From Escherichia virus TH42, in sequence record MT446413.1: a stretch of 64,000 bases of DNA; one strand, written 5' to 3'. Position 1 is the stretch's first letter. Each line of letters begins with the position of its first letter. Below the pieces are notes generated by a model, which searched no databases, had not been told where the DNA came from, and saw only the letters and a list, made by a program, of their open reading frames with translations. The translations under genes were made by a program, and so were the position numbers. Shown here in pieces: positions 16,444 through 52,561 of the stretch.

Positions 16444-17038
16444 CGGGTAGCAGATCAACGGTAACGACAGATGGGTAGAACGTGCCGCATAGGTTAGCCA
16501 ATGGGTAAGAAGCCTAACGAGGAAGGGGAAACGGGTAGGATATAATGTAAGTTAGTTACAGGTAACAGGTCAGACCATGCGGGAGTTAATTACCAGTCAA
16601 ATAATTTACTCAAACAACAAAAGAAAAAGACCAACAGCACGCTGAAAAAGAAAAAGATTAAAAGAAAGGATTAACATAATCACTTAAGTAAACAATAACC
16701 AGTCTAAACATACATACATCAATAATCCACTCATAAATAATCACATAAGTTATTACATTCAAACTATGGGGAGTGTGTGGGTTGATATAATTGCATGGTG
16801 TTACCATGTGGGTATCATTAATGTTCTTACTATTAATACCGGTTAGTTATAGTCTTCTATTAGTATGCCTGTACAGTACATCAGAGTCTAGCCTTTCATC
16901 CCTTCTCAACATGAGTAAGAGAAATACGGGTAGGAAATCACTGGTTAGATATACATGGGTAGATTCGCATTACTAGATAATGCTCATGGGTAAATAATGC
17001 ATGTCTAATATCAATGGGTAGGGTATTTATGGGTAGGT
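16444..17038 (+). repeat. iteron-like array of (A/C)(T/C)GGGTA(G/A) motifs in the divergent intergenic region
   Basis: Copies at about 16444, 16471, 16501, 16531, 16926, 16956, 16985, 17013, 17029; more ATGGGT(G/T) copies at 17408-17520; no ORF of 60 aa or more across 16290-17230 on the block strands. Confidence 0.55.
16542..16549 (+). promoter_or_regulatory. ATAATGTA motif (candidate phage promoter element)
   Basis: One of seven (T/A)(G/A)TAATGTA occurrences lying in intergenic or gene-end DNA and oriented with downstream genes. Confidence 0.2.
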
Positions 17039-17233
17039 GTGCCACTGAACGCAGATAGGGCAAGGCTTAGAGCTTAAAGGCTGATTGATTTCCTAAAGGC
17101 GATTGCATTCCCTATAACCCTTTTTTAAATGAGGACTCCCCCTTTTACCAAAACACGCTCGGAGGGGCTAGGTCCACTCGGTCAAATCAGAATTTTAAAC
17201 CCTTATATATAACTATATGCCCCAACGTTAGTT

Positions 17234-17425
17234 GTGGATTTAAGAGTGAGGAACAACTTTATGTGGAAATTGAAGATGATTATCAGGCAGATTAAATGTA
17301 ATCACGAGTACTACCCAATCCGGATATCGAGAGGTGATGAACGGTTACATGCTTATTACAAGAGTACATGGAGGTGTGCAGATTGTGGTAAGGTTAAGAA
17401 TAGTAAATGGGTGGATAGGCCTTAA
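17234..17425 (+). CDS. small zinc-ribbon-like protein (63 aa)
   Basis: C..H....C..C pattern; first plus-strand ORF after the divergent region. Confidence 0.4.
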   Translation: MDLRVRNNFMWKLKMIIRQIKCNHEYYPIRISRGDERLHAYYKSTWRCADCGKVKNSKWVDRP

Positions 17426-17547
17426 CATGACATGGCCTTTATGAAGTCCCCTTTACATCAGCGTACATGGGTTCATACATGGGTGGGCCTTTAGATGAGT
17501 AAGCCTTTATGGGTTGATCACTCTCGTTTATCAGAGGAGATATAAAA

Positions 17548-17796
17548 ATGATTCTAGACTTTTTATCAGAGCTGCTTCCTTACTTCCGCACTGAAAGATG
17601 TGCATTTGTATTTGATGAAGGGGAGGAGGTATTGAGTTGTTTGGGTAGATTAGTAGACCTAGATGACGATGAAGATTTTGATGCTACGATGGATATTAGT
17701 TCATTGGGCTGGTTGTACATGAGATGCTTTGTAACCTACAAGGCTGAGACGTTTAAAGACTATCGTTATAACACGGAAGGAGAGAATGATGAATAA
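17548..17796 (+). CDS. hypothetical acidic protein (82 aa)
   Basis: Track ORF with GGAG-type RBS upstream. Confidence 0.45.
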   Translation: MILDFLSELLPYFRTERCAFVFDEGEEVLSCLGRLVDLDDDEDFDATMDISSLGWLYMRCFVTYKAETFKDYRYNTEGENDE

Positions 17797-18442
17797 TATG
17801 ACAGGAACTAATACACTGAATGCAATCTACGAGAACATGGGATGTAAAGGCGAGGTTGTTTACAATGGTAATCTCCGTCCCTTATCAGAGGACACTCTCT
17901 ATCTGAATCGTGTTCATGAAACCACTGGAGGTAAATCCCGAGTTGAGATGGTAAAACAATTGGCTCATGGTTCTGTGTATGGTCATGCTCCTTCAACCCG
18001 TGAACTATGGGAAAGTTTGATTCCTCGTACAGAAGCTAAAGATGTGAAAGATTATTTTACTGTAGCAAAAGAAGTTAAACGCAAGTGTCCATCCAATTTA
18101 GAAGTTGTTCCGTATGTATCTGACAAACATGCACACCTACCGGATTATGCCCGTGAGATGATTGAGATGATAGAAGAAGCTGAGTATGAAGCTCTGAATA
18201 ATTATTTAAATTCGAAAGATCAGTGGTCACGTAATGTAGTAATTGATGAAGAAGGTAATGAAGTAGTTACGTGGGTACATGCTAGTGAACAAGCTCTGGA
18301 CCCCGAGCTTGAAGAATACAAAAAATTTTTGGCGTCCTCTTCTTTTGATGTAGAGAATGACAAATCTGTTCCAGTGACTTGGGAAGGTGAAACTGTAGCT
18401 CTCCAGACTTTGTTCAACCTACACGTAGGTAATGTAGATTAA
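17786..18442 (+). CDS. hypothetical protein (218 aa)
   Basis: Track ORF on block strand. Confidence 0.55.
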   Translation: MMNNMTGTNTLNAIYENMGCKGEVVYNGNLRPLSEDTLYLNRVHETTGGKSRVEMVKQLAHGSVYGHAPSTRELWESLIPRTEAKDVKDYFTVAKEVKRKCPSNLEVVPYVSDKHAHLPDYAREMIEMIEEAEYEALNNYLNSKDQWSRNVVIDEEGNEVVTWVHASEQALDPELEEYKKFLASSSFDVENDKSVPVTWEGETVALQTLFNLHVGNVD

Positions 18443-18507
18443 TAAAAGGTGTTGCCTCCTCTAGTGGGAGGCTTTTTGTTATAACGATAATGTAGAAGGA
18501 GTATAAG

Positions 18508-18975
18508 ATGTTTGGAGAAAAAGGAGAACTCACGCCTGCACAGGTAGCTGAGGTTACAGGAAGATTACCCGGTGTAACTGATGAATTGGAAAACCGTGGT
18601 ATGGAGCCAAGCACAGGGAAGTTCCAAAAGGGAAATAAGTTCGGACGACCCAAAGGTAGTAGAGGTAAGTTGACACAGCTCATGTTGGACCGAGTTGCTT
18701 CAAGTCATCTGTCCCCTGATGAAGTGTTGATTCAAATTTATGAAGATCCAAATATTCCACCTGATCTTAGATTCAAGGCTGCAAGTAAAGTTGCAGATCT
18801 GGTATATCCGAAGGCAGCTTCTGTTGAGATTAAGATTGAGGAAGAGAATGTAATTAATGAAGATTCATTGAACGCACAAATCAAGGACTTCTTGGCTGGA
18901 GCATTAGGTGCAGATGTGCTACCTCCAGAGGACTCTGAGGACGCTGAAAAGGAGGAGGAAGCGGACGAGAGTTAA
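18508..18975 (+). CDS. putative terminase small subunit (155 aa)
   Basis: Position directly upstream of large terminase, size, acidic C-terminus; call rests on synteny only. Confidence 0.4.
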   Translation: MFGEKGELTPAQVAEVTGRLPGVTDELENRGMEPSTGKFQKGNKFGRPKGSRGKLTQLMLDRVASSHLSPDEVLIQIYEDPNIPPDLRFKAASKVADLVYPKAASVEIKIEEENVINEDSLNAQIKDFLAGALGADVLPPEDSEDAEKEEEADES

Positions 18976-19041
18976 TAGGAATAAAGGGGAGGGTTCTTTT
19001 CGCGAGGGATCTCTCCCTTTTCTATTTTAATTGGAGGAAAC

Positions 19042-20583
19042 ATGTCATTAGATAAAGAAATATATGAAGCACTAACTGGAGACAAACTATCGGTAGAGGA
19101 GAAGAAGGCTCTGCTTGAAATGCTGAAGGATAGAGATCAATGGAGAAAGTATAATAGGATTCTTTCTTTTAAAGCATACCAGTTTCAGAAAGACTTTTAT
19201 GCAGCGGGACTGAAGCATCGCTTTAGATTCCTGTGTGCAGCTAACCGTGTTGGTAAATCTTACAGCGAGGCATACGAGTTTGCTTGTCATGTCACAGGTC
19301 GCTACCCAACTTGGTGGACAGGATATAGATTTAATCGACCCATATTGGCTTGGGCAGTAGGGATTACAGGGGACTCTACAAGAAAGGTATTGCAAAAGGA
19401 ATTGTTTGGAACACCTATCGGAAAGGATACAAACTTATTAGGGACGGGTGTTATTCCTCGTGATGCTATCGTCATTGACACGATAGAACGAGATGGAAAC
19501 AAATTACAGATCGTACAAATCAAGCACCAAAATGCTAGAGGCGAATTTGATGGGCTGAGTACGTTAGAGTTTCGTTCTACCCAACAAGGTGAACACACAT
19601 TAATGGGTGCTACAGTGGATTACATTTGGCTGGATGAAGAAGATCCTTATGAAAGTATGGCAATCTTCTCTCAGTGCGTAACACGTACACTTACTACTAA
19701 AGGTTTAGTTACGATTACAGCTACACCAGAGAACGGATTAACAGAGCTGGTGGACAAGTTTATGAAAGGTGAAGGGGACGAGAACACAGGTTCTCTATAT
19801 TTCCAAAATGCTTCTTGGTGGGATGCTCATGTGGACCTAGGTGGTCACATCTCTGACCAAGATATAAAGGATATGACAGAAGGTATTCCGGCATGGCAGC
19901 TAGAGATGCGCTCTAAAGGTATGCCTCTGTTGGGTTCAGGTTTGATTTATGATGTATCTGATGATTCAATTAAGTGTGACCCGTTTGAAATTCCTGATAC
20001 GTGGAAACGTGTTTGTGCCATTGATATTGGTATTGATCACCCGACGGCAGCTGTATGGTCAGCTTATGATGCTAACACCGATACAATCTACATTTATGAC
20101 TGCTATAAAGAAAGTGGCTTTACTCCAGTGTATCATGCACCAGCTATTAATGGTCGTGGTCAGTGGATTCCAGTCATTCTTCCTCACGATGCTGATAACA
20201 TTGAGAAGGGAAGTGGTGCTTCTGTAGCACAATTCTATAAAAATGCAGGAGTAAACGTACAAAATGATACCTTCCATAACAAGATCGGAATGGATGGTAA
20301 GAAGAACTTCTTTGTGGAGCCAGGAATTACTGATATTCGTGAGCGTATGATGTCAGGTCGATTCAAAGTCTTTAATACTACCGCATGTGCTAAGCTCTTT
20401 GAAGAGAAAGCACGTTACCATCGAAAAGTTGGTAAGATTATTAAAGAACATGATGACCTTATGGACGCAATGCGATATTCAGCTTGTTCTGTTACACACA
20501 GAGGTCGGTCTAAGCATGACGCTAGCTATGGTAGCTCGTCGCTTTATCAAGAAAATATTAACAGATGGAATCAAAGCTACTAA
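19042..20583 (+). CDS. terL: terminase large subunit
   Basis: 513 aa; Walker-A-like CAANRVGKS near N-terminus, acidic nuclease-domain residues in C-terminal half; followed by portal-sized gene. Confidence 0.85.
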   Translation: MSLDKEIYEALTGDKLSVEEKKALLEMLKDRDQWRKYNRILSFKAYQFQKDFYAAGLKHRFRFLCAANRVGKSYSEAYEFACHVTGRYPTWWTGYRFNRPILAWAVGITGDSTRKVLQKELFGTPIGKDTNLLGTGVIPRDAIVIDTIERDGNKLQIVQIKHQNARGEFDGLSTLEFRSTQQGEHTLMGATVDYIWLDEEDPYESMAIFSQCVTRTLTTKGLVTITATPENGLTELVDKFMKGEGDENTGSLYFQNASWWDAHVDLGGHISDQDIKDMTEGIPAWQLEMRSKGMPLLGSGLIYDVSDDSIKCDPFEIPDTWKRVCAIDIGIDHPTAAVWSAYDANTDTIYIYDCYKESGFTPVYHAPAINGRGQWIPVILPHDADNIEKGSGASVAQFYKNAGVNVQNDTFHNKIGMDGKKNFFVEPGITDIRERMMSGRFKVFNTTACAKLFEEKARYHRKVGKIIKEHDDLMDAMRYSACSVTHRGRSKHDASYGSSSLYQENINRWNQSY

Positions 20584-20650
20584 ATATAGTGGGGAGGCTA
20601 GTCCTCCCTTTAGTAGTTTACTCCAAGCTATCAACCGAGGGAGAGATTAG

Positions 20651-22894
20651 ATGGCTAAGAAGAAATTTAGTGAAGATATTTTGGATGAATTACGCGTTGA
20701 CCTTCAACGTCGATTCAATTATGCACAAGGTTATGTAGACCTCGCTGTAAAAGGTTATTCTCGTGAAGCATGGGAATACTTCTACGGAAACTTACCAGCT
20801 CCAGTAACTGCTGGAAGCTCTAGTTGGGTAGATCGTACAGTATGGGAGTCTGTTAACGGAACTCTCCAAGATATCATTAACGTATTCTGTTCAGGCGATG
20901 AAGCGGTGACGTTTGTTGCGGACAACCAAGCAGATTCGGATGCAGCTGATGTAGCAACTAAGCTGGTAAACCAAATCTTGCTTCGTGATAATCCGGGATA
21001 TAACATCATTTCCTCAGCGGCTCAGGAATGTCTGGTTACACGTAACTCTTTTATCAAATACTATTGGGATGAACAAACCTCCACTCAAACAGAAGAGGCT
21101 GAGGGCGTACCTCCAGAAGCTTTGGCTGCATACGTACAAGGTATGGAAGCAGGCGGACTTCAAGATTTAGAAATCTTTACCACTGAAAACGATGATGGAA
21201 CAGTGGATGTTAAAGTAACTTACAAACAAACAGTAAAACGTGTTAAAGTAGAATATGTTCCTTCAGAGCAAATCTTTGTTGATGAACATGCTACCTCTTT
21301 TGCAGATGCTCAGTATTTCTGTCATCGCACACGTAAATCTAAAGATGATTTATTAGCAATGGGCTTCCCTAAAGACGAGATCGAAGCGTTTAACGACTGG
21401 ACTGATACAATGGACACCACTCAGTCTACAGTTGCTTGGTCACGTACTGACTGGAGACAGGACATTGATGCAGACATTGGTGTGGACACTGAAGATGTGG
21501 CTTGCATGGTTTGGGTTTATGAGCATTACATCCGTACAGGTGTATTGGATAATAACAAAGAATCTAAACTCTATCAAGTAATCCAAGCAGGTGAGCATAT
21601 TCTCTCTTGTGAAGAAGTAACTAGCATTCCGTTTGTTACTTTCTGTCCTTACCCTATTCCGGGTTCCTTCTATGGTCAATCCGTGTATGACATTACTAAA
21701 GATATTCAAGACCTACGTACAGCACTTGTCCGTGGTTACATTGATAACGTTAACAACGCAAACTATGGTCGATATAAAGCCATTGTAGGAGCCTATGACC
21801 GTCGTTCTTTACTAGACAACCGTCCGGGTGGTGTAGTTGAAATGGAGCGTCAGGATGCGATTGATCTCTTCCCTTACCACAACCTACCTCAAGGTATTGA
21901 TGGTCTGTTAGGAATGTCTGAAGAGTTGAAAGAAACTCGTACAGGTGTTACTAAACTTGGTATGGGTATTAACCCTGATGTATTTAAGAATGATAACGCA
22001 TATGCAACCGTAGGTTTAATGATGAATGCTGCACAGAACCGTCTCCGTATGGTCTGTCGTAACATTGCTCATAATGGTATGGTTGAATTAATGCGTGGTA
22101 TTTACAACCTTGTCAGAGAAAATGGTGAAGTTCCTTTACAGGTTCAAACCCCTCGTGGCATGGTTGAAGTAAATCCTAAACAATTACCAGCTCGTCATAA
22201 TTTACAAGTTGTTGTAGCTATCTCTCCTACTGAGAAATCAGAACGTGCACAGAAACTGATTAGCCTGAAGCAATTGATTGCTGCTGATGCTCAGCTTGCA
22301 CCTCTCTTTACTCTGGAGCAAGATCGTTATATGACTGCACAGATCTTTGAGTTGATGGGTATTAAAGACACTCATAAATATCTTATGCCTCTTGAACAGT
22401 ATCAACCTCCTCAGCCTTCTCCGATGGAAATCCTCCAGCTCGAGATGACTAAAGCTCAGGTTGAGAACGTACAGGCTTCTTCTCAGAAGATGATTGCTGA
22501 TGCATTCGACCAGCGTGAACGTACTACGTTTGAACAGCAGAAAGCTGCGGACGAGTTCAGCTTACGTCAAGAAGAATTGCAATTCAAGCAAGAGAATGCT
22601 GCTGATCAGATGACTCTTGAAAATCGTAAGGAAGATAACTCAGCTACTCTTGAACAAGCTAAGCATAAGCTTTCTCTCCTTCAGCAACAGGTTCGTCAAT
22701 ATGAATCTATACTGAAAGAACTTCAGATGACTATGAATCATCAGGTTGATCTTGAGAAGGTAGACCAGCAAGCTAAAATTCAAGATAAGACTTTGGAACT
22801 CCAAAAGAAAGAAGCAAATGAAACTAAGAAAGAACAACAAAGTTCTCTCAAAGATTCTAGGATTCCTAATAGAAAGCTTGGTAGTAGAAAATAA
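20651..22894 (+). CDS. portal protein (putative)
   Basis: 747 aa between terminase and scaffold/capsid genes; C-terminal coiled-coil. Confidence 0.65.
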   Translation: MAKKKFSEDILDELRVDLQRRFNYAQGYVDLAVKGYSREAWEYFYGNLPAPVTAGSSSWVDRTVWESVNGTLQDIINVFCSGDEAVTFVADNQADSDAADVATKLVNQILLRDNPGYNIISSAAQECLVTRNSFIKYYWDEQTSTQTEEAEGVPPEALAAYVQGMEAGGLQDLEIFTTENDDGTVDVKVTYKQTVKRVKVEYVPSEQIFVDEHATSFADAQYFCHRTRKSKDDLLAMGFPKDEIEAFNDWTDTMDTTQSTVAWSRTDWRQDIDADIGVDTEDVACMVWVYEHYIRTGVLDNNKESKLYQVIQAGEHILSCEEVTSIPFVTFCPYPIPGSFYGQSVYDITKDIQDLRTALVRGYIDNVNNANYGRYKAIVGAYDRRSLLDNRPGGVVEMERQDAIDLFPYHNLPQGIDGLLGMSEELKETRTGVTKLGMGINPDVFKNDNAYATVGLMMNAAQNRLRMVCRNIAHNGMVELMRGIYNLVRENGEVPLQVQTPRGMVEVNPKQLPARHNLQVVVAISPTEKSERAQKLISLKQLIAADAQLAPLFTLEQDRYMTAQIFELMGIKDTHKYLMPLEQYQPPQPSPMEILQLEMTKAQVENVQASSQKMIADAFDQRERTTFEQQKAADEFSLRQEELQFKQENAADQMTLENRKEDNSATLEQAKHKLSLLQQQVRQYESILKELQMTMNHQVDLEKVDQQAKIQDKTLELQKKEANETKKEQQSSLKDSRIPNRKLGSRK

Positions 22895-22903
22895 GGACAC
22901 TAA

Positions 22904-23140
22904 ATGAATACTAGACAACAATTCAATAAAGAGCATGCCGCCGCTTTGGCGGCTCTCAATCATAACGGCATTCTTGACGCAGCATTAGAGGCATTAAAAG
23001 AAACCCTCATGAAAGACATAGTTTTAACTGATGTGCATGAGTCAAAGAAACGCGAAGAGTGTTATCAAAAGTATAAAATGGTTGGTAGCTTAAAAGAGGT
23101 CATAAAAGCTGCTATCAATAGTGCAGGAGATAATTCCTAA
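22904..23140 (+). CDS. hypothetical protein (78 aa)
   Basis: Track ORF between portal and scaffold genes. Confidence 0.4.
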   Translation: MNTRQQFNKEHAAALAALNHNGILDAALEALKETLMKDIVLTDVHESKKREECYQKYKMVGSLKEVIKAAINSAGDNS

Positions 23141-24219: not shown

Positions 24220-24259
24220 TCGACAAATTATTTTTAAATAGTATAGGAGCTAACATAAC

Positions 24260-25318: not shown

Positions 25319-25339
25319 CAGTTGACAGCGTAACTGTTA
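25300..25339 (+). promoter_or_regulatory. programmed -1 ribosomal frameshift signal
   Basis: Slippery heptamer G_GGA_AAG (X_XXY_YYZ in capsid frame) at 25300-25306, 10 nt before capsid stop; 7-bp hairpin AACAGTT/AACTGTT at 25318-25339. Confidence 0.55.
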
Positions 25340-26121: not shown

Positions 26122-26183
26122 GAACTGACCTAGGTTCTACAGTGTTCAAAACTTACACCATTAAATCTGGTGCTTAAAACTAA

Positions 26184-26213
26184 GGCTGCCTTCGGGTGGC
26201 CTTTTCTCATTTT
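26184..26213 (+). terminator. rho-independent terminator after capsid/Ig gene
   Basis: GGCUGCC-UUCG-GGUGGCC followed by UUUUCUCAUUUU. Confidence 0.6.
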
Positions 26214-26234
26214 AAGACCCTTATAAGGAGATAT

Positions 26235-26242
26235 GTAATGTA
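26235..26242 (+). promoter_or_regulatory. GTAATGTA motif (candidate promoter element)
   Basis: 43 nt upstream of ATG of 26278..27024, between terminator and RBS. Confidence 0.25.
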
Positions 26243-26277
26243 TTCTCTTTGTCTATACATAACTAGGAGGACACACT

Positions 26278-27024: not shown

Positions 27025-27033
27025 GGAGAACAT

Positions 27034-29667: not shown

Positions 29668-29677
29668 AACTAAGAAT

Positions 29678-29700
29678 GCCCTCTCTTCAGAGGGCTTTAT
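29678..29700 (+). terminator. rho-independent terminator
   Basis: GCCCTCT-CTTC-AGAGGGC followed by TTTAT. Confidence 0.6.
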
Positions 29701-29712
29701 GGAGGATTATAA

Positions 29713-31890: not shown

Positions 31891-31896
31891 AGGACT

Positions 31897-36590: not shown

Positions 36591-37613
36591 TTGGAGGTAC
36601 TTATGGGTGCTGGAGGTTTTCGTAAGAATACTGGAAGAAACAACACCACACTTCCCTACAACGTTGGGTTTTTAAACAATGTAGAGGATACGGATAAATA
36701 TAACGTTGCAGTTTATGATGAATTGCAGAAAGTCAGTACAGCAACTAACCAGATGTTCCAAGCAATCGACGAGATTCATGAAGAAATAGATGTTCGTATT
36801 AAAGCTCTTAATGCAATGAACCTACAGTTTGATGAACTTGAGAACCGAATTACTACAGAGATTGAAACAGCTATTGCTGATATTCAAACACAGATGGGTA
36901 ATCTTTCTACTGAAGACATTTGGGATAGAAGCACTAACCCTCCGACTAAACTGGATGGTACAGTTGCAGGTTTCAAAACTTCTATTGAAGGTAATGATTT
37001 AAAGATTCAGACAGTACAAGGTATTGTGAATGAACAAGGACAAGAGATTGCTTTAGTTCAGACAGAACTTACTGCTCAAGGTACTCAGATTGCTGAAGTG
37101 GATGGTAAGGTTACTACTGTACAGAATTCTCTTTCTCAATACATGAGACTAGATAGTTACGAAGCTACATGGGGTGTCAACTCTTCTATTAATGGTCAGT
37201 ACGCTGGTGTTAAACTAACTAACAACGGCACGAACAGCCAATTCCAAGTAACGGCTAATAAATTTATTGTTGGTGATGGCAACTCTGGTAATACTCCTTT
37301 TGTTTTTGAAGGTGGTAGAGCTAGAATGGAATTCGCTGATATCAAGAATGTCAACATTACAACTGCTCAGATTGCTAATGCTCGAATCCAATTTGCTCAG
37401 ATTGATAACGTATGGATTCAAGATGGACAGATTGCTAACCTTACTGCTAACAAGATTACTGCTGGCTCTATGAGTGGTTCAAACTGGAGACTTACTGTTG
37501 GCGGGGATTTTGTGATGGGTGGTACAGGCGGTTCTCAGTTGTGGATGAACGGTAATAGAATAGATTTTTATGATGGGAGTGGAACTCTTCGTATAAGAAT
37601 AGGGAGTTGGTAA
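36591..37613 (+). CDS. putative tail fibre-like protein (340 aa)
   Basis: Short repeats (QIANARIQFAQIDNVWIQDGQIANL) typical of fibre shafts. Confidence 0.5.
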   Translation: MEVLMGAGGFRKNTGRNNTTLPYNVGFLNNVEDTDKYNVAVYDELQKVSTATNQMFQAIDEIHEEIDVRIKALNAMNLQFDELENRITTEIETAIADIQTQMGNLSTEDIWDRSTNPPTKLDGTVAGFKTSIEGNDLKIQTVQGIVNEQGQEIALVQTELTAQGTQIAEVDGKVTTVQNSLSQYMRLDSYEATWGVNSSINGQYAGVKLTNNGTNSQFQVTANKFIVGDGNSGNTPFVFEGGRARMEFADIKNVNITTAQIANARIQFAQIDNVWIQDGQIANLTANKITAGSMSGSNWRLTVGGDFVMGGTGGSQLWMNGNRIDFYDGSGTLRIRIGSW

Positions 37614-37614
37614 T

Positions 37615-38649: not shown

Positions 38650-38658
38650 GGAGAGGAT

Positions 38659-39453: not shown

Positions 39454-39465
39454 TAAGGAGGACGT

Positions 39466-40515: not shown

Positions 40516-40526
40516 GGAGGTAAATA

Positions 40527-41498
40527 ATGGCAGGTTTATTCGGTGGAGGGGGTAGCTCTTCTACTTCCAAAATGACAAGACCTGAATATATTCAATCCTA
40601 TATTGACCAACTGGTTAATCAGGTGAATAACACAAGTTCAGGCGATTATGTTTATAGAGATAATGTAGGTTTCAATCAGAACCAAACTGAGGCTCTGAAT
40701 AACCTTTCTCAATCAGGAGCACTTGGTGCTCTGTCTTCTCAATATATGGATGCTGCTCAATCTGGTCTGGGATATCTCGACCAAGCCAATTCAGGCTATA
40801 ACAACCTATCTAACTCTGGTCAAATTACTGGTGAACAGATTGGTGCCTTGGCTGGTCAGCTCTATGACGATGAAGCTGTTCAGGCTGCTATTACAGCTAA
40901 CAATGAACAGACACAACAGGATTTGGCTCGTAATGCTCTACCTCAGTTGGCTCAGCAATATGCTGGACAGCAAGGTTCAGGTGCTAGAATGGCTAAATCT
41001 TTTGCTCAAGGTGATGCTCTTAATCAGATGCAGAACACAGCAACCAATATTACCAACAGTGCTTATGATTCAGCTCTTAATCAAGCTCAAAGCATTCTGT
41101 CAGGTAATAGACAATCTCAAGCTTCTGCTCTAAGTGGACTCTCTGGAATTGGTAGTTCTTTATCTAATTTAGGAACCCAAGCAGGTCAACTATCCCAGCA
41201 GCAGATGCAGAATCAGTGGGCAGCAGGTTTGCAGCAACAGCAACAGCAACAAGCTGGTCTGGATAATGCTTATACAAACGCTCAGAATGCAGCCAATTGG
41301 GGCTGGCAAGACATTAACAACCAACTCGGTGCAGCTGGTGTTCTCAACGGTGCTTTAGGTACTACAACTACTAATAAGGTTTCAGGTGGTGGGAGTGGTT
41401 TCTTAGGTGGTGCTATGAGTGGCGCAGCAGCAGGCTCTTCCTTCGGACCTTGGGGTGCATTAGCAGGTGGGGTTATCGGTGGGTTGGCTAGTTCTTAA
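40527..41498 (+). CDS. Q/N/S/G-rich low-complexity virion protein (323 aa)
   Basis: Strong RBS; compositionally similar to preceding gene; Gly-rich C-terminus. Confidence 0.5.
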   Translation: MAGLFGGGGSSSTSKMTRPEYIQSYIDQLVNQVNNTSSGDYVYRDNVGFNQNQTEALNNLSQSGALGALSSQYMDAAQSGLGYLDQANSGYNNLSNSGQITGEQIGALAGQLYDDEAVQAAITANNEQTQQDLARNALPQLAQQYAGQQGSGARMAKSFAQGDALNQMQNTATNITNSAYDSALNQAQSILSGNRQSQASALSGLSGIGSSLSNLGTQAGQLSQQQMQNQWAAGLQQQQQQQAGLDNAYTNAQNAANWGWQDINNQLGAAGVLNGALGTTTTNKVSGGGSGFLGGAMSGAAAGSSFGPWGALAGGVIGGLASS

Positions 41499-41512
41499 TT
41501 AGGAGATTAATT

Positions 41513-43144
41513 ATGCAACAAACATCTTACGCGTATCTTCGTAGTCAAGACCCGCGAAATCAGATTTATGGTGATCGTCAGAGAGGGGTTACGGCCTCTC
41601 CTTACATGTCCAGACCTGCTGGTCCAGCAGCTGACTTATCTATGTATCAGCGTCCAGCTCTTCCTGCTGTCTTAGGAGCTACAGTTGAACAAGCACAGGC
41701 TGACCAAGAAGCTATGATGAATCCGGGATTCAAGCAACGTCTTTATGAACAGCAGGGTATTTCCACTCCTACTAGTTTGGCTGGTATTGATGCTGGCATT
41801 AATCCGGGTGATGAAGGCTCTATGATGCCTGCTGATGTAGCTCCTGCTTCTAGCCCTCTTCCGGTTACAGCTCCTGCTAAACCAATTGAAGAGTCGGATA
41901 AAGAGTTTGCCCCTGAACAAGTACAACAGGCACAAGGTGTCATGAATACTATCGCTTCTGGTGTTCCTCAGGGTGAAGGTATGAGTGGTGCTACTCGTGC
42001 TGCTGACCAAGAACGTGTGAATCAGGATATTCTTAAAGTTGCACAATCTAAGAACCCGGCAGATGCGTGGAAGACTATGCAGAAACAGCCTTTCTATCAA
42101 AACTCTAGTTTCTATACAGGATTGATGGGTGTGGGTCTTTCTATTATGTCTGGTAAATCTCCGATTGAAGCATTCCAGATTGGCTCTGGTATGGCATCTC
42201 AGGATGAAGCTAAACAACAATTAGAACTGAACCGTGATAACCTGATCGAACAAGGTTACTCTCAGGATTCTGTAGCTGCTGCTGTAGCTGCTGGTGACCC
42301 TTCTCTTCTGAAGATGCGTCAGATTAGTCCTCAAGAGAAGATGGCTCTAGCCGCTCAAGATGAAGCTCGTGCTAATCAAGAGTGGGATAGACGTCAACAG
42401 ATTCAAGAGAATTCGATGCGGGAACGTGCTGCTGAAACCCGTCGTGCTGCTGAACAACGTGCTGATGCTCAGTTTGAGAAGCAGAAAGAGTTGATTGGTT
42501 ATCGTGATCAAGTTAAGGCAGACCGTGCAGAACAAGCTGCTCAAAGTTTTAACTTTAACCCGAAAGAAGTTCGTCTTGCTCAGAACACTGCTGAAGGTAC
42601 GGTTGCTAAGCAATGGGCAGAGAAGGCAGGACTGTTTAACCAGTCTCATAAAGACTTGGATTTGGCAGACAAAGCAGTTAAGGATGGTGATTATCAGACT
42701 GCTCGTTCTGCGTACATGCAGGCTATCATGAACTCCGCGAGAGCTGAGATTGGTGCTAACCGTTCTCTGCAAGCTGATGACTTGTCACACTTCGCAGAAG
42801 ACCCATCCATTCTTGTTAAGGTAGGTAACACTTGGTCTCTTAAAGCTGGTTATCGTCCATCCGATGCCGCTCTTTCCTATGCCCGTAAGCAAGCAACTGT
42901 TGGTGCTTCTTCTGCTGAGAAAGGTGTTAAGGATTCTAAGAAAGCAACTATTGAAGCTTATGTTGGTTCTGGTATGGACAAGAAACGTGCAACTGCTCTT
43001 GTTAACCGAGCTATTCCTTCTGCTGGTTTCTATGACCCTCTCGGTGTATTCGAAGCAGAGTCTGAAGCAGCTGTTGGTGGTTCAGCAACCAATCCTAAAC
43101 TTAATGGTGCTTTGTCTTCTAACACTGATTGGATGACTCAGTAA
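41513..43144 (+). CDS. virion protein (543 aa)
   Basis: Track ORF with RBS, module position. Confidence 0.5.
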   Translation: MQQTSYAYLRSQDPRNQIYGDRQRGVTASPYMSRPAGPAADLSMYQRPALPAVLGATVEQAQADQEAMMNPGFKQRLYEQQGISTPTSLAGIDAGINPGDEGSMMPADVAPASSPLPVTAPAKPIEESDKEFAPEQVQQAQGVMNTIASGVPQGEGMSGATRAADQERVNQDILKVAQSKNPADAWKTMQKQPFYQNSSFYTGLMGVGLSIMSGKSPIEAFQIGSGMASQDEAKQQLELNRDNLIEQGYSQDSVAAAVAAGDPSLLKMRQISPQEKMALAAQDEARANQEWDRRQQIQENSMRERAAETRRAAEQRADAQFEKQKELIGYRDQVKADRAEQAAQSFNFNPKEVRLAQNTAEGTVAKQWAEKAGLFNQSHKDLDLADKAVKDGDYQTARSAYMQAIMNSARAEIGANRSLQADDLSHFAEDPSILVKVGNTWSLKAGYRPSDAALSYARKQATVGASSAEKGVKDSKKATIEAYVGSGMDKKRATALVNRAIPSAGFYDPLGVFEAESEAAVGGSATNPKLNGALSSNTDWMTQ

Positions 43145-43164
43145 GACCTAAGTCCTATCTCTTA

Positions 43165-43172
43165 TAATGTAT
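43165..43172 (+). promoter_or_regulatory. ATAATGTA motif (candidate promoter element)
   Basis: 45 nt upstream of ATG of the 1472-aa gene. Confidence 0.25.
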
Positions 43173-43209
43173 ATAGGAGGTAGGACATTTTTATTTATAA
43201 GGAGAAATT

Positions 43210-47628: not shown

Positions 47629-47633
47629 ATGAG

Positions 47634-47672
47634 AAAAGCCCCCAACCTGAAAAGGAAGGGGGCTTCTTTATT
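47634..47672. terminator. bidirectional terminator between convergent blocks
   Basis: AGCCCCC...GGGGGCT stem flanked by A-tract upstream and T-tract downstream. Confidence 0.6.
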
Positions 47673-47786
47673 TCTAGATGTTAGAATCCATCGAATTCAT
47701 CATACATCCCAATTTTCTTCTTGATGAAGGAGGTCTGGACGTTCATCAAACACTCCCCCAATCTTCTTCTTCGATCATAAGACCTC

Positions 47787-48146
47787 CTAGATTAAATCAT
47801 AATACTTAATAATATCAGAGAGCTTAAACTCTCGAATGTCATTCTTGTCATTGTCCCAAGCGGTCATTATCCAACAAGGTTTGCCCCCATTATGATAACG
47901 GGAAGAAGCAACTGAGGTTCGTATAGGAACAACGGAGCGGTCTGCAATTTCACCTCTCCAATTACGATAGCTAAAGCGAAGAACTTGTTTCGTAGATACT
48001 TGATCATAGGTGTTTTCCTTGTTCATAGATTCAAAGACTTCTCTTTCTTCAGGAGTCTCTAGATTTTTTAAATTCTCGTCTTGCATCATTCTCTTCCTTA
48101 GTTTTAATCTTATGACAAGGCTCTTTACACAAGACTTGAAAGCCAT
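47787..48146 (-). CDS. hypothetical protein (start uncertain)
   Basis: Track ORF overlaps the 3' end of the HNH gene; likely starts at an internal Met (MMQDENL, about 48089). Confidence 0.4.
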   Translation of the reverse strand: MAFKSCVKSLVIRLKLRKRMMQDENLKNLETPEEREVFESMNKENTYDQVSTKQVLRFSYRNWRGEIADRSVVPIRTSVASSRYHNGGKPCWIMTAWDNDKNDIREFKLSDIIKYYDLI

Positions 48147-48453
48147 CTACTTCAACCAAAGCTCTCTCGATGATTTCATCCCAAGAAGCTTCATGGTCCA
48201 CTGGAACAATAGGGTTGATATGGTCAACAGCTACCTCTTTGAGAGGAGAGTCATTACCGCACATGGCACACTCATAGTGCATTGCCAGTTTACCAGTTTT
48301 GGGGTTGATCTTACGCTCTGTCTGAGCCTCTTTAAGAGAGTCAAACATAGGCTTCCACTTTCTAGTGAGAGAACGAATCCCTGACTTGATGAAGGAATTA
48401 TATCGTGCTTCAGTCCACTGACCAGAGCATCTAGTTTTCTCAGCTTTCGCCAT
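48049..48453 (-). CDS. HNH endonuclease
   Basis: YECAMCGNDSPLKEVAVDHINPIVP...LCKEPCHKIK = zinc-ribbon plus HNH motif; start moved to internal MAKAEK because the N-terminal 56 residues of the track ORF look non-coding. Confidence 0.6.
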   Translation of the reverse strand: MAKAEKTRCSGQWTEARYNSFIKSGIRSLTRKWKPMFDSLKEAQTERKINPKTGKLAMHYECAMCGNDSPLKEVAVDHINPIVPVDHEASWDEIIERALVEVDGFQVLCKEPCHKIKTKEENDARREFKKSRDS

Positions 48454-48631
48454 AACCCACATCCATGTCAGCATCTTCCCAAATACGTTTGTTAATACGA
48501 TGTGATTCTTTTTCAGCACGAGGGATACGTCCTGTACGACGATCAAATGCTTGGTGTTTAATCTTCTGGTCTTTACGAGACTCACGATTAGAGGAATTTT
48601 CATCATACGAACGATAGTCAAATTTACCCAT
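48440..48631 (-). CDS. hypothetical basic protein (63 aa), uncertain
   Basis: Track ORF between exonuclease and HNH genes. Confidence 0.3.
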   Translation of the reverse strand: MGKFDYRSYDENSSNRESRKDQKIKHQAFDRRTGRIPRAEKESHRINKRIWEDADMDVGYGES

Positions 48632-48641
48632 TATAATATCC

Positions 48642-49487
48642 TTATTCCCAAGATTTATCTAACCACGACCAATCAAAGAGGTCGCCTTCAGCTTGTCCAA
48701 CGAAGAGCAATCGAGCATTTTCTAACATCTTAGCTTCTGCTTCTTCCTCGAACCTCTTATAGTATTCCATTCGTATAATATGATAAAGAGTCCACTTATC
48801 GAATACCTTCTCAATAAGTTTGATAGCAGCTTTGCTACCAATACCCTTACGACGCATAACTAAGTTACCGCCCCACATCATTTCAACTTTCTCACCACAT
48901 CCGGGGATGTTATCTGTACTGTCTCCAATCAACATCTGATAGAAGAAGTTCTGCCATGCTACTTCCTCTGATACGTAATGAGGGGGTACTTCTTTCTGTC
49001 GTTCACCGCAAGCCCAGCGGTAATGCCATCCGGGAGTGATTAACAAATCCTTATCACGAGTACAGATGATTGTGTTCTTTTCTATACGCTGTCGTTCAGC
49101 GAGTGCATCATCTGCTTCTCTACCAAACACCTCAACGTACTGATAATGTTCTTTGATGTAATCACTAACGTTCTGCCAGTGATGTGGTCTTTCTCCCGGA
49201 GGTCGGTTAGCTTTGTAACCTTGTTGCTGAGCAATATCAAATCGGAAGTTACCACCTTCACTAAAATAGAAGACAGTTCTTTCACAACCAGCTCTTGAGA
49301 TGATTACATCAATCTTATGTTGGAGACGTTCAATCAAGAATCCATAATCAACTGGAACACGACCTGTGTCTAGGAAAGGATGCTCTTGTGTAAGAGCACC
49401 AACTTCATACCTAAGAACATCTGCATCCACAATTGCTACTTCAGGATAGATTACATCAGGCATAGAGATCTCTCCGTGTCTGTGCAA
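48642..49487 (-). CDS. 5'-3' exonuclease / flap endonuclease
   Basis: GREADDALAERQ, TRDKDL and GDSTDNIPG motifs typical of the Pol I 5'-exonuclease/FEN family. Confidence 0.75.
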   Translation of the reverse strand: MHRHGEISMPDVIYPEVAIVDADVLRYEVGALTQEHPFLDTGRVPVDYGFLIERLQHKIDVIISRAGCERTVFYFSEGGNFRFDIAQQQGYKANRPPGERPHHWQNVSDYIKEHYQYVEVFGREADDALAERQRIEKNTIICTRDKDLLITPGWHYRWACGERQKEVPPHYVSEEVAWQNFFYQMLIGDSTDNIPGCGEKVEMMWGGNLVMRRKGIGSKAAIKLIEKVFDKWTLYHIIRMEYYKRFEEEAEAKMLENARLLFVGQAEGDLFDWSWLDKSWE

Positions 49488-50052
49488 TACTGTATTCTAA
49501 ATACTCCACCGCCTCTTCTACAGAACAATCATTAAAGAGAAGGTAGGTTGAAAGGTTCGCGCCTTCAATATAGGAACGAGAGTCTCCTTCAAAAGTACAG
49601 CCATCACGATGAATCTGAATTACTCGAACATGGAAATGTTTTTCCAGTTCTTCAACTTCTGCTTTAAATCCACCATCAGAGAATACAATAACATCATTCT
49701 GTGTTGGGATGCGTTGTTGAATACTGCTAACAGCAAGCTTACCCATGCAGGTGTCACCAAACATTGGTTTCAGGTAGTTCTCACTAGTCGCAATCATTAA
49801 ATCTCGAACTGTCTTACCGCCCCATTCAGGACGGCTATATTCTTTCCACTCACGGTCGTTGTATAGCTCCATGAACTCATAAAGAGGAAGTCCTAATGCA
49901 GCAGCAGCCACTCGATACATAGGCTCCTTAAAAGCCTTTACATGCGGTCTAAACTCAGTGTTACCGACGGTCTTCTCTAACCAAGCATTAGCGATTGTAT
50001 CTTTACCACAACCCGGTGGTCCATTCAGAATTACTACTAACGGTTTACTCAT
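49456..50052 (-). CDS. P-loop kinase, putative (deoxy)nucleotide kinase
   Basis: Walker A GPPGCGKDT at residues 11-19; about 200 aa. Confidence 0.5.
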   Translation of the reverse strand: MSKPLVVILNGPPGCGKDTIANAWLEKTVGNTEFRPHVKAFKEPMYRVAAAALGLPLYEFMELYNDREWKEYSRPEWGGKTVRDLMIATSENYLKPMFGDTCMGKLAVSSIQQRIPTQNDVIVFSDGGFKAEVEELEKHFHVRVIQIHRDGCTFEGDSRSYIEGANLSTYLLFNDCSVEEAVEYLEYSIAQTRRDLYA

Positions 50053-50702
50053 TATTGAATCATCCCTTGAAGATCTTCTTTATCAAAGTGCTTCTCTACT
50101 ACAGCTTCATACAGATCACGATTCTCTGCATAACGGCGATAGAAGGTTCCGTGTGAAATTCCTAACTGCTGCTGAATATGATCATGAGGAATTCCAAGGA
50201 AGAGCATAGAGAACATGCTTGCCATTTTCTTGGTATCCATAATATCACTTAAGTCTTGGAAGAAGAAAAAGATTCTAGATTCCAAGAAGGGGTCTCCAGT
50301 AGAGTCATGCTTATCCATCGCAATCTCTAAAGGACTTTCCCATGAGTTCATCTCAGGAGGTCTAAACATATCAGCCTCTGGAATAGAGTAGATACGTCGA
50401 TCTCCAACTGTCTGACGGTTAGAACGAATAGACCAGATGATATTCTTAACACGATAAGTCATGTGTTCAATATCTTTTTCATCAGTGAGCAGAAGTTCTT
50501 CTTGCTTTGCAAACACAAAACGCCAAGCGTTCAGTAACACTTCCTGAGCAACATCCTCTGCTTCGTGATAATCTTTAATGTCATACATGAAATAGCGATG
50601 CACAACTTTCCAGTTCTCTCGATAGAATTCATCGAAGGTTGGATAATATTTAATAGGAATGCCATGAATACGATAGCGTGTGGGTGTTGTCTTCTTCTTC
50701 AT
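50052..50702 (-). CDS. ECF-like RNA polymerase sigma factor (putative)
   Basis: [13 protein letters not shown] resembles sigma region 2; C-terminal [23 protein letters not shown] resembles region 4 HTH. Confidence 0.5.
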
Positions 50703-50726
50703 AAGTCGTCCTTAACTTACTTTGTA

Positions 50727-50951
50727 TTAAACTACACAGAACAAATACATTGCTGTGTCAGGACAAGGGATGGCTGTCTGAATACCACTTACCTTAATCC
50801 ACATATCTTCTTCAGGGTCGTAATAGGCCCAATAGGATTGATCTCCATCTACAAAGAATTTAAAAGTTCGTCCCCAAACCTGATTATTATATTCCCATAC
50901 TGCATGAAGTTGAGTAACACCTTCTGGTATTGTAAGTTCCGCTCTGATCAT
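50727..50951 (-). CDS. hypothetical protein (74 aa)
   Basis: Track ORF; 4-nt overlap with upstream gene. Confidence 0.4.
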   Translation of the reverse strand: MIRAELTIPEGVTQLHAVWEYNNQVWGRTFKFFVDGDQSYWAYYDPEEDMWIKVSGIQTAIPCPDTAMYLFCVV

Positions 50952-51208
50952 TGTATTCCTCTCTCCTTGAGAGCTTTCAGTAAACCATTATGGTTAGCAG
51001 CACAGGTTGTGTAGTTGTCCTGATACCACTCTAATGTTGTTGCAAATGCCGCTCCCTGTGCACTCTGAAGCAAAGGGAGATCAACATCACACTCAGCTTT
51101 TAGGTTTGTTGGTAAGGGCATTAGCTGCCTGCTGTTGTCGCTCGTTGAACAAGCTGACATACTCATCGCTAGCGCACACATTGTAAAAAACTGGCTTAGT
51201 CTTCTCAT
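50948..51208 (-). CDS. outer-membrane spanin (Rz1-like lipoprotein), putative
   Basis: ATG at 51208; signal peptide with Cys at position 20 (MSAC), Pro-rich mature part; start lies inside the i-spanin gene in another frame. Confidence 0.45.
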   Translation of the reverse strand: MRRLSQFFTMCALAMSMSACSTSDNSRQLMPLPTNLKAECDVDLPLLQSAQGAAFATTLEWYQDNYTTCAANHNGLLKALKERGIQ

Positions 51209-51440
51209 AATGCATCTCTTTGTAAACAGTTTCCGTGTTCTTCTTCCAGTTAGTTAAACTGGTTAGAACTTTCTTAGCTACTTCATCAGCAGCCTTAGCT
51301 CTCTCAATCTCAATCTCTTGTTGTTTCTTCTCTTGGTCAAGAGTGTTACTATCATTTCGATATTGTTCAAACTTCATTCCGCCAAAGAATACAAGAGCTG
51401 TAAAGACTAAGAAGCCGATATTGTTTTGAAGCTTTTCCAT
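51093..51440 (-). CDS. inner-membrane spanin (Rz-like), putative
   Basis: Track ORF starts at a GTG (51464) inside the upstream terminator; the ATG at 51440 with GGAG RBS is the likely start; N-terminal TM segment then coiled-coil. Confidence 0.5.
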   Translation of the reverse strand: MEKLQNNIGFLVFTALVFFGGMKFEQYRNDSNTLDQEKKQQEIEIERAKAADEVAKKVLTSLTNWKKNTETVYKEMHYEKTKPVFYNVCASDEYVSLFNERQQQAANALTNKPKS

Positions 51441-51452
51441 TTTAACTCCAAC

Positions 51453-51476
51453 GAAAAAAGCCACCCGAAGGTGGCT
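51453..51476 (-). terminator. rho-independent terminator
   Basis: Perfect AGCCACC-CGAA-GGTGGCT hairpin with A6 on plus strand; between SSB-like gene and i-spanin. Confidence 0.7.
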
Positions 51477-51499
51477 AAGCTATTACAAGGAGAGATTCA

Positions 51500-52240
51500 T
51501 TAGAAAGGGCTGTCATCTTCTTCAAAGGTAGATTGAGGCTCTTCATTAATAGTAGGGATACTTGGAGTCGCGTCTTTCTGTTCAGTGTCAGAAGCGCGAG
51601 TAACTTCACGACCAGCCAGAGGGATGTTTTTAGCATCATTAGCTTGGGTCAGAAGGTTACGTTGGAATGGAAACATAGCTTGATAAGCAGCCAAGTTAGC
51701 GTCAGTTTCAGCATACGGTTCGAAGAAGATCAACTCACTACGAGGAGCACCTACAGCATCACGATACTTAGTTGGGATTGGAGTGATGCTCTTGATAGAG
51801 TTTTTCTTCTCACCAGCTTTGTTGGTGTAAGAGTTAACCAGAATGTTGACAGGCTGACCAAGCAGCATATCTTTGAACCAACCCAAATCACCTTTCAGTG
51901 CTTGAACACTTGGGTCGATCATTTTAATTAGGTTCAGAATACCAGAGTTCTTAGCTCGTGGGTTTACATCGAAGGATTTAAACTGACAAGCAGGACGTGG
52001 GTCCAATGCCTTACCATCATTATCTGTACCAGTTGCGTCAACACCAATCAGTTCAAATGCCAAGTCCATACGGAAAGCTGGGTTCTTAGGAGTAACTGCT
52101 TTGGTCTTAGGGTCAATCCAAGGGTCACGATTGTGAACACCTAAACCTACTACACGAACAATGCGTGCTTCGTACTCGCCATCAGGGATTACATCGTAGT
52201 TGGATTTACGGGATACAGACAGTTCAGGGATCATAGACAT
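51500..52240 (-). CDS. single-stranded DNA-binding protein (putative)
   Basis: 246 aa ending in acidic tail EEDDSPF, like the SSB C-terminal motif DDDIPF; call rests mainly on this tail. Confidence 0.45.
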   Translation of the reverse strand: MSMIPELSVSRKSNYDVIPDGEYEARIVRVVGLGVHNRDPWIDPKTKAVTPKNPAFRMDLAFELIGVDATGTDNDGKALDPRPACQFKSFDVNPRAKNSGILNLIKMIDPSVQALKGDLGWFKDMLLGQPVNILVNSYTNKAGEKKNSIKSITPIPTKYRDAVGAPRSELIFFEPYAETDANLAAYQAMFPFQRNLLTQANDAKNIPLAGREVTRASDTEQKDATPSIPTINEEPQSTFEEDDSPF

Positions 52241-52301
52241 ATTAATATTTCCTTATATAAATTTAAGATTGTTGCTCTCTTTGAGCGGTTGGTATACTAT
52301 A

Positions 52302-52309
52302 TACATTAC
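52302..52309 (-). promoter_or_regulatory. GTAATGTA motif (candidate promoter element)
   Basis: Minus-sense motif 62 nt upstream of the SSB-like gene ATG; same 10-mer ATACATTACA at 10991-11000. Confidence 0.25.
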
Positions 52310-52561
52310 ACCTATACAGATAAGGTTCTATTATACTATAACCTTTTTGGTAGTAGATAACAGTAAGTAGTAATGTATATATTGTATAGCTAGTAAAGCT
52401 ATTGCAGGCTTGTATATTGGGCAATCATCGTAACCCTTGCAAGTACCGAAGGGCAGGAGACACCTGCGAGATAAAAATAGAGAATTAAGGAAACCCTTGA
52501 TTTAGGTTGAGGACTCCTAGGACTTTGATTCTCTATTAAAATCAAAAGAAAACTAATTAAC

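Follow-up and report, generated by a model that had tools for sequence, protein, structure and literature searches.

The DNA analyzed here (referred to as the window; 64,000 nucleotides [nt] of Escherichia virus TH42, record MT446413.1) covers 64 kb of a ~77-kb genome and belongs to a phiEco32-like podovirus of the subfamily Gordonclarkvirinae. Its gene order is that of phiEco32: early genes on the minus strand, followed by a long noncoding genome-end region, then the plus-strand late genes for structural proteins and lysis, and finally middle replication genes, again on the minus strand. The structural block is 92 to 96% identical to those of TH43, Bas88, and TH34, 88% identical to that of ECBP2, and ~79% identical to those of NJ01 and TH06, and the replication block is 96 to 98% identical to those of TH34, Bas88, and TH43 and ~80% identical to those of phiEco32-like Kuravirus records. 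The short motif TAATGTA recurs in this DNA, and a reading made earlier from the letters alone (here, the original prediction) proposed it as a phage promoter element used by host RNA polymerase together with a phage sigma factor. That proposal holds, since the same element is found at the same gene positions in phiEco32 (PMC8948821, PMC4331800, PMC4281155, PMC12276001). The motif is the published promoter element of the phiEco32 gp36-type sigma factor, so the phenomenon was already known and the reader rediscovered it. Judging from sequence comparison, we consider it highly likely that in this phiEco32-like phage the motif serves as the −10-like element of middle and late promoters that are used by the host core enzyme with a gp36 homolog.

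In phiEco32, gp36 is a diverged phage sigma factor, and six promoters of the gp36 holoenzyme have been found experimentally (PMC8948821, PMC4331800, PMC4281155). These lie upstream of the late genes 6, 13, and 26 and of the middle genes 40, 58, and 68 (PMC8948821). They were described as having a common single element, tAATGTAtA, with transcription starting 6 to 8 bp downstream of it (PMC8948821, PMC4331800, PMC4281155). In Table S3 of PMC8948821, P6 reads TAATGTAgA, P13, P26, P40, and P58 read TAATGTATA, and P68 reads aAATGTATA; predictions of these promoters for NJ01, ECBP2, KBNP1711, SU10, and 172-1 are given there as well. A 2025 cryo-electron microscopy (cryo-EM) structure of the open complex on P68 (PDB 9m7y; Xu et al. 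2025) places AATGTA at −14 to −9, centered on −11.5; gp36 residues N95, S91, S94, E79, and H80 read A-14, A-13, T-12, and G-11, W90 and Y83 stack at the fork, and R187 and Y186 of the C-terminal domain touch G-37 and A-34 (PMC12276001). A small protein, gp79, turns off sigma-70 transcription and activates gp36 transcription (PMC12276001, PMC8948821).

By flanking alignment and gene order, all six of these promoter positions carry the element both in the window and in phiEco32. Together with a seventh site, here called PX and described below, they make up a set of seven window sites that read TAATGTA followed by T or G and then A or T, or else AAATGTATA. Alignment to phiEco32, TH06, TH43, TH34, ECBP2, KBNP1711, and NJ01 showed that the 9-mer has been kept at all promoter sites, even those whose flanks are only ~80% identical. 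The conserved extension of the motif lies on its 3′ side (tAATGTAtA), and not on the 5′ side, where the original prediction had placed a (T/A)(G/A) extension that is not conserved. The copy at 18487 had been set aside as too near its ATG to be a −10 element; it is, however, the ortholog of the mapped late promoter P6, which in phiEco32 is likewise 13 nt away from the ATG (TAATGTAGAaggagtataaaATG), and its 9-mer is kept in phiEco32, TH06, and TH43. A transcript from P6 would have next to no leader before gene 6, and its main role would be to supply the terminase and portal genes downstream. Two sites of the set, P58 at 58786(−) and P68 at 63839(−), were missing from the earlier list, and at P68 the window has both G-37 and A-34, matching the published gp36 contacts. 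Coordinates of all sites are collected in Table 1.

The window also encodes the sigma factor that such promoters would need. Its only PDB match is chain F of 9m7y, phiEco32 gp36 (E = 5e-119), and its match to Pfam Sigma70_r2 falls under the cutoff (20.3 bits versus 24). Ten published DNA-contact residues (E79, H80, Y83, R84, W90, S91, S94, N95, Y186, and R187) are unchanged, as are the acidic clamp-binding residues D44, E47, E49, D50, and E54. Because all DNA-contact residues are unchanged, promoter specificity should equal that of gp36.

Table 1. Coordinates of gene blocks, predicted promoters, and related features in the window
Feature	Position	Strand	Description
Early genes	1-16285	−	followed by long noncoding genome-end region
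Late structural and lysis genes	up to 47628	+	
Middle replication genes	47787 onward	−	
P6-type late promoter (predicted)	18465-18503	+	box TGGGA 18465-18469; element TAATGTAGA 18488-18496; predicted +1 ~18503; ATG 18508 (5 nt on); phiEco32 P6 ortholog with same element and ATG distance
P13-type late promoter (predicted)	26213-26251	+	box TAAGA(CC) 26213-26219; element TAATGTATT 26236-26244; predicted +1 ~26251; ATG 26278; phiEco32 P13 ortholog; AATGTA core kept in phiEco32, TH06, TH43
P26-type late promoter (predicted)	43142-43180	+	box TAAGACC 43142-43148; element TAATGTATA 43165-43173; predicted +1 ~43180; ATG 43210; phiEco32 P26 ortholog; 9-mer identical in 7 comparator genomes
P40-type middle promoter (predicted)	52293-52331	−	element TAATGTATA 52308-52300; box TAGAA 52331-52327; predicted +1 ~52293; ATG 52240; phiEco32 P40 ortholog; element invariant in 15 genomes
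P58-type middle promoter (predicted)	58779-58817	−	element TAATGTATA 58794-58786; box TGGAA 58817-58813; predicted +1 ~58779; ATG 58753; phiEco32 P58 ortholog with identical downstream leader; 9-mer kept in 6 comparators
P68-type middle promoter (predicted)	63832-63870	−	element AAATGTATA 63847-63839; −35 box (T)GGTAGTAGATA 63870-63859; predicted +1 ~63832; likely ATG 63801; ortholog of phiEco32 P68, promoter of the cryo-EM open complex
PX, seventh gp36-type promoter-like site	52348-52386	+	divergent from P40; −35 box (T)GGTAGTAGATA 52348-52359; 11-nt spacer; element TAATGTATATA 52371-52381; predicted +1 ~52386
Conserved noncoding region, candidate ~160-nt RNA	52386-52545	+	downstream of PX
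H1, 5′ hairpin	52386-52402	+	begins at predicted PX +1
H3, hairpin (GCAGG/CCUGC)	within 52386-52545	+	part of candidate RNA
H4, long hairpin	~52476-52537	+	minus-strand T-run after H4 = terminator for upstream middle operon
Phage sigma gene, gp36 homolog	50052-50702	−	216 amino acids; 81% identical to phiEco32 gp36
Background copy, not a promoter	10992-10999	−	GTAATGTA(TC); inside open reading frame 10952-11173
Background or unsupported copy	16542-16549	+	ATAATGTA(AG); abuts fourth AYGGGTAR repeat in genome-end noncoding region

Counting over the whole window against a background model showed the motif to be more frequent than in shuffled sequence, as the promoter proposal implied. RTAATGTA occurs 13 times on the two strands, versus 5.4 ± 2.2 expected from dinucleotide-preserving shuffles, and 0 of 100 shuffles reached 13; for TAATGTAT there are 8 copies versus 2.7 expected. 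The seven copies first listed are all present, with two coordinates off by 1 to 2 nt (10992[−], 16542, 18487, 26235, 43164 rather than 43165, 52302[−], and 52370 rather than 52372). They are not the full set, since six further RTAATGTA copies (18231, 18429, 27071, 40660, and 44639 on the plus strand and 58788 on the minus strand) had been missed, as had the variant cAAATGTATA at 63839-63847(−), which falls outside the RTAATGTA pattern because position −15 is A. The chance expectation given earlier, about one copy per strand (about 2 in total), was likewise too low. The whole RTAATGTA excess is accounted for by the six copies at conserved promoter positions, and the remaining 7 of 13 are close to the background expectation of about 5.4. 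A test for intergenic enrichment gave p = 0.014 to 0.07, a conservative value that we did not rely on, as the crude gene model based on open reading frames (ORFs) wrongly put an ORF over 52241-52561.

The heptamer TAATGTA by itself shows only weak enrichment (17 versus 10.9 expected; 4 of 100 shuffles reached 17), and its non-promoter copies lie in sense and antisense orientation at a ratio of 10:1. This skew is not significant against the expectation from composition, as a sense-strand Markov model already predicts ~6 copies versus the 10 non-promoter copies observed, and the ratio in phiEco32 is 5:5. As a separate observation, phiEco32 has no copy of TAATGTA on either strand of 50001-77554 (27.5 kb, mostly early region; ~4.9 expected). 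The early region of the window has four copies, so any avoidance is not general.

What sets the seven sites apart is a second box upstream. A purine at −36 and an A at −34 are present in 7 of 7 sites, mostly with a T at −38; of the 31 other AATGTA sites, only 4 have both the purine and the A (hypergeometric, ~3e-5). The box comes in two flavors, both conserved in phiEco32: TTGGTAGTAGATA in P68 and PX, and TAAGACC in P13 and P26, with TAGAACC in P40. The evidence for it comes from two genomes, with GGTAGTAG (P68 and PX) and AAGACC (P13 and P26) as its flavors. The box T-38 R R n A-34 is in keeping with the −35 contacts of the 2025 structure and not with the older "single-element" description. 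When a position weight matrix was built from the seven sites each of the window and of phiEco32, the seven window sites scored 24 to 29 bits, the next best window position scored 5.9 bits, and shuffled-sequence maxima were 6.6 to 16 bits, a gap that is inflated because the matrix was trained on the same sites that it ranks first. Nothing else in the window resembles the seven sites.

The functional candidates are therefore six of the 13 RTAATGTA copies plus P68. None of the seven background RTAATGTA copies has the upstream box, and most are mutated in phiEco32; of six background copies that could be compared, 5 (18231, 18429, 23889, 27071, and 44639) are mutated in distant relatives. The sixth, at 40660, is retained, and one such copy out of six is unremarkable at this divergence. 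It reads TAATGTAGG at 40661-40669(+) inside the gene 24 homolog and is kept in phiEco32, TH06, TH43, and TH34, where its flanks are 73% identical; it has no A at −34 and is probably under coding constraint. Two copies that the original prediction had listed, those at 10992 and 16542, are unsupported, given their lack of the −35-like box or the 3′ tA, their low matrix scores, and the want of a phiEco32 counterpart. The 10992 copy has G instead of A at −34 and TC in place of tA and ranks outside the top 25 matrix scores; the 16542 copy scores 2.6 bits, versus 24 to 29 for the real sites. In the comparator alignment, neither has an alignable counterpart in phiEco32, and both align only to the near-identical TH43.

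The noncoding genome-end region around 16542 has a repeat family of its own. Nine co-oriented AYGGGTAR repeats lie in 16443-17036(+) in two phased clusters, the first at 16443, 16471, 16501, and 16531 (~29- to 30-bp spacing) and the second at 16926, 16955, 16986, 17014, and 17029. The whole window has 20 copies versus 4.7 expected, and the repeats may be bound by proteins that act in packaging or replication.

Chance, or the composition of an AT-rich genome with its codon or strand bias, could in principle scatter functionless copies of so short a motif, and the weak heptamer excess, the background behavior of 7 of the 13 copies, and the ~6 copies that sense-strand Markov models already predict all point that way. 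For the other copies this explanation is valid. For the seven sites it is refuted by an 8-mer count above that of all 100 shuffles, by orthologous intergenic positions at which the 9-mer is kept at ~80% flank identity, by an upstream box common to all seven in fixed register, and by matrix scores at least 18 bits above everything else. As an account of the motif as a whole, chance is almost certainly wrong.

A second alternative, that the sites are host sigma-70 promoters in which the TATA-rich TGTATATA acts as an extended −10-like element without any phage sigma factor, draws on the suggestion in the SU10 genome paper that some middle genes can be read by both holoenzymes (PMC4281155) and on the perfect TATAAT that overlaps the 16542 copy. 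However, a scan for TTGACA, a 16- to 18-nt spacer, and TATAAT found no consensus-like promoter at P6, P13, P26, P40, or P68 and only weak matches (9 of 12) overlapping PX (52354-52383, +) and P58 (58811-58784, −), whereas the strong matches (10 to 11 of 12) lie elsewhere, in the early region (13346, 13648, 13880, and 16325, all on the minus strand). In the literature the sites belong to the gp36 holoenzyme, gp79 shuts off sigma-70 transcription (PMC12276001, PMC8948821), and the invariant G-11 is read by E79 and H80 of gp36 (PMC12276001). We therefore regard this alternative as very improbable. The early-region matches form a group in themselves: four minus-strand, near-consensus sigma-70 promoters in 13318-13880 and 16298-16325, with TTGACA and a 16- to 17-nt spacer. 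Three of them lie in the 1.5-kb noncoding spacer 12406-13941 and one lies at the start of the early cluster, and they match the four early promoters of phiEco32 and SU10 (PMC4281155, PMC8948821). The early region also has a tRNA match at 5965-6043(−) (Rfam, 36.4 bits; none reported by ARAGORN), and the early region of phiEco32 has a tRNA-Arg.

Several points weigh against assigning the motif to gp36-type promoters. The predicted P6 leader has only ~5 nt before the ATG of gene 6, and P13 is slightly off consensus, reading TAATGTATT in the window and TAATGTACT in TH43. G-37 is confined to 4 of the 7 sites (P6, PX, P58, and P68), with A in its place at P13 and P26 and T at P40, and the inflation of the matrix gap has been noted above. 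The phiEco32 promoter positions used here were taken from later publications, some by the same group, and not from the primary mapping paper (Pavlova 2012), and promoter activity, start sites, and timing in the window would follow those of phiEco32 by analogy with its literature. Finally, no gp79 homolog was found within the 64-kb window. Such a homolog is present in 97 phiEco32-like records, including Bas88, TH34, and ECBP2 (80% identity), and in these three its gene lies ~5 to 6 kb past the point corresponding to the window end; the gene for the coactivator is thus expected ~5 to 6 kb beyond the end of the window.

Terminator-like structures accompany most of the sites. P6 follows a hairpin (18454-18472) with a T-run, P13 follows another (26182-26203) with a T-run, and P40 lies downstream of a long hairpin with a T-run on the minus strand. 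At P26, a 15-bp terminator-like hairpin (43152-43186; −21.2 kcal/mol; z = −4.6) contains the −10 element in its apical part; the hairpin is followed by AUUUUUAUUU, and its stem is kept in phiEco32 through G-U pairs and compensatory changes. RNA started at the predicted +1 of P26 lacks the 5′ arm. Without that arm the hairpin cannot fold, and such RNA is expected to escape termination; 43152-43186 would then be an overlapping terminator and promoter. The original prediction had placed four copies just after a terminator and 40 to 62 nt upstream of an ATG. The distance is roughly right for all four (26235, 43164, 10992, and 52302). The terminator stands for 26235 and only loosely for 52302, whose hairpin is ~170 nt upstream, but 43164 is inside its hairpin and the terminator-like site nearest to 10992 is ~460 nt away. 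As most sites lie behind or inside terminator hairpins, they look like sigma-dependent restart points.

P58 is accompanied by a hairpin of a different kind. At 58753-58786(−), a 13-bp hairpin (−15.1 kcal/mol; z = −3.8), identical in sequence in phiEco32, pairs CUCCUUA with the Shine-Dalgarno sequence UAAGGAG of the gene after P58. The predicted P58 start, 58779, is inside its 5′ arm, so read-through RNA would hide the ribosome-binding site and P58-initiated RNA would expose it. This arrangement resembles the control of T4 gene e.

In the mechanism that we propose, the host Escherichia coli RNA polymerase core would take up the window-encoded sigma factor, whose N-terminal domain would read A-14, A-13, T-12, and G-11 of AATGTA, with the DNA melting from −11, and whose C-terminal domain would contact the upstream box T-38 R R n A-34. 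Transcription would begin ~7 nt after TAATGTATA. The plus-strand sites P6, P13, and P26 would drive the late genes for structural proteins and lysis, and the minus-strand sites P40, P58, and P68 would drive the middle genes for replication and nucleotide metabolism, with PX facing the opposite way in the gene 40/41 intergenic region. Each site behind or inside a terminator would restart transcription in a sigma-dependent manner.

PX corresponds to the copy that the original prediction had called inconsistent with the rest, being antisense to its neighbors (given as 52372; actually 52370/52371). Far from being an exception, it is a complete promoter-like site and the best conserved of all. It lies in the gene 40/41 intergenic region, its −35 box and element are spaced exactly as in P68, and exact GGTAGTAGATA occurs in the window only twice, in P68 and in PX. 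phiEco32 shows the same arrangement at 36704(+), neither box varies among 15 to 20 distinct genomes and metagenomic contigs, unlike the 11-nt spacer and the flanks, and the matrix score is on par with those of the validated sites. PX is probably a real gp36 promoter. It appears in no accessible published promoter list for the phiEco32 group, a check that did not extend to the primary mapping of Pavlova 2012, and we found no relevant literature on antisense transcription in phiEco32. Scans of metagenomes and IMG/VR with GGTAGTAKAT-N12-WAATGTATA returned only phiEco32-like contigs plus unrelated chance matches and gave no wider distribution.

The P40 and PX elements (52300/52371) could also be seen as a single inverted repeat, an operator or a replication-origin element for a dimeric protein instead of two promoters. 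The arms are 17 nt long, 88% complementary, and 60 nt apart, and they lie within an unusually conserved 320-bp noncoding region. However, five other promoters have this 9-mer as a lone copy, an upstream box of its own accompanies each arm in promoter register, and P40 is a mapped promoter in phiEco32 (PMC8948821). Moreover, genomes of the myPSH2311 type (~690 to 820 of the myPSH2311 locus), as well as several metagenomic contigs, have an insertion of ~130 nt between P40 and PX and keep both sites. For this pair, we judge the inverted-repeat explanation to be improbable.

Downstream of PX, the region 52386-52545 has ~90 nearly invariant columns, 1-nt indels among relatives, and no ATG-initiated ORF, and it is more conserved than the adjacent genes. 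A coding reading of 52241-52561 was rejected, as it offers only TTG-initiated ORFs and shows 1-nt indels among relatives. Within hairpin H1, two pairs show double compensatory changes, and G-C/G-U alternation keeps pairing on the plus strand only, with 119 of 120 pairing cells paired on the plus strand versus 109 of 120 on the minus strand; paired cells amount to 99.2%, versus 92.5% in shuffles, and 0 of 500 shuffles equaled the observed value. The covariation represents only ~3 independent events and gives moderate support for the structure, and pairs outside H1 are invariant and so carry no information for or against it. The middle module of the region (window 52405-52445; 9674-9855[−] of the ECBP2 locus) exists in two unrelated versions: type A, ~40 nt, in the window, phiEco32, and SU7, and type B, ~66 nt with its own hairpin, in ECBP2, MN05, and myPSH2311. 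The versions form a mosaic that does not follow overall relatedness, which points to exchange by recombination. For both types, the consensus fold of the plus strand is the more stable one (−39 kcal/mol, versus −29 kcal/mol for the minus strand, in type A; −49 versus −41 kcal/mol in type B), and single-sequence folding of the PX region gave modest z scores of −2.1 (plus strand) and −1.75 (minus strand). Rfam, searched with gathering cutoffs as well as with E-value thresholds, gave no family in the PX region, with only sub-threshold noise in 52150-52650; the sole gathering-level match in the window is the tRNA at 5965-6043.

We tentatively suggest that PX may be an unlisted seventh gp36-dependent promoter, antisense to the middle operon, that makes a conserved structured noncoding RNA of ~160 nt with the covarying H1 at its 5′ end, the exchanged module in its middle, and a nearly invariant 3′ half, a reading that we hold to be possible rather than probable. 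If this is true, the RNA or its transcription could regulate the 3′ ends or the stability of middle transcripts, serve as an insulator for the P40 unit, or take part in DNA replication as a primer or activator. Alternatively, PX may bind the gp36 holoenzyme without making a functional RNA, either as a roadblock or collision source that helps to end transcription of the middle operon (minus strand) ahead of P40 or as a neutral duplicate of the P68 promoter. PX does meet the minus-strand terminator H4 head-on, plus-strand H4 lacks a good U-tract, and the complementarity of the putative RNA to possible trans-targets was limited to 11- to 12-mers at chance level. Against this, the region transcribed from PX is more conserved than the adjacent genes, and H1 covaries with G-U pairs that are valid on the plus strand only, and we consider a PX without a functional RNA unlikely.

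The value of the motif lies in confirmation: a reading of the sequence alone recovered a phage promoter class that has been characterized experimentally and structurally. The window can now be annotated with transcription units, a sigma factor, temporal classes, and a corrected list of seven sites. The sole potentially new element is PX with its conserved noncoding region, which, in a model system that is already well studied, offers a cheap and concrete lead toward a regulatory RNA of a phage or a transcript associated with an origin.

Among known systems, Salmonella phage 7-11, a related podovirus with its own sigma factor (gp47), has late promoters of the form GTAAtg-(16)-aCTA at equivalent genome positions, and their upstream half, GTAATG, resembles the gTAATGta of the window. 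Phage 7-11 differs in its bipartite consensus with the downstream aCTA, in a sigma factor that is only ~15% identical, and in having neither gp79 nor a middle class (PMC8948821); the promoter classes of 7-11 and phiEco32 do not cross-match (PMC8948821). The closest parallel is phiEco32 itself, which shares with the window the element, the six gene positions, the P68 −35 box, and the succession of an early sigma-70 region and then middle and late units behind terminators. PX, too, is common to both and lies outside the accessible published lists. The window nevertheless belongs to a different lineage, closest to ECBP2, Bas88, and TH34 and with ~80% nucleotide identity to phiEco32, and its P58 directly follows a phoH gene and not a gene 59. 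T4 late promoters (TATAAATA, read by gp55) resemble those of the window in having a short AT-rich −10-type element, a highly diverged phage sigma factor on the host core, and a phage coactivator. They differ in sequence, the sigma families are unrelated in sequence, T4 uses a sliding clamp and gp33 where the phiEco32 group has a gp79-type protein, and gp36 adds −35 contacts. With bacterial extracytoplasmic function (ECF; group 4) sigma factors, gp36 shares a two-domain organization, sigma2-like and sigma4-like, and databases label it "ECF sigma factor." Whereas ECF promoters carry GGAAC −35 and CGT −10 motifs, the window promoters are without these and have AATGTA as their −10 element.

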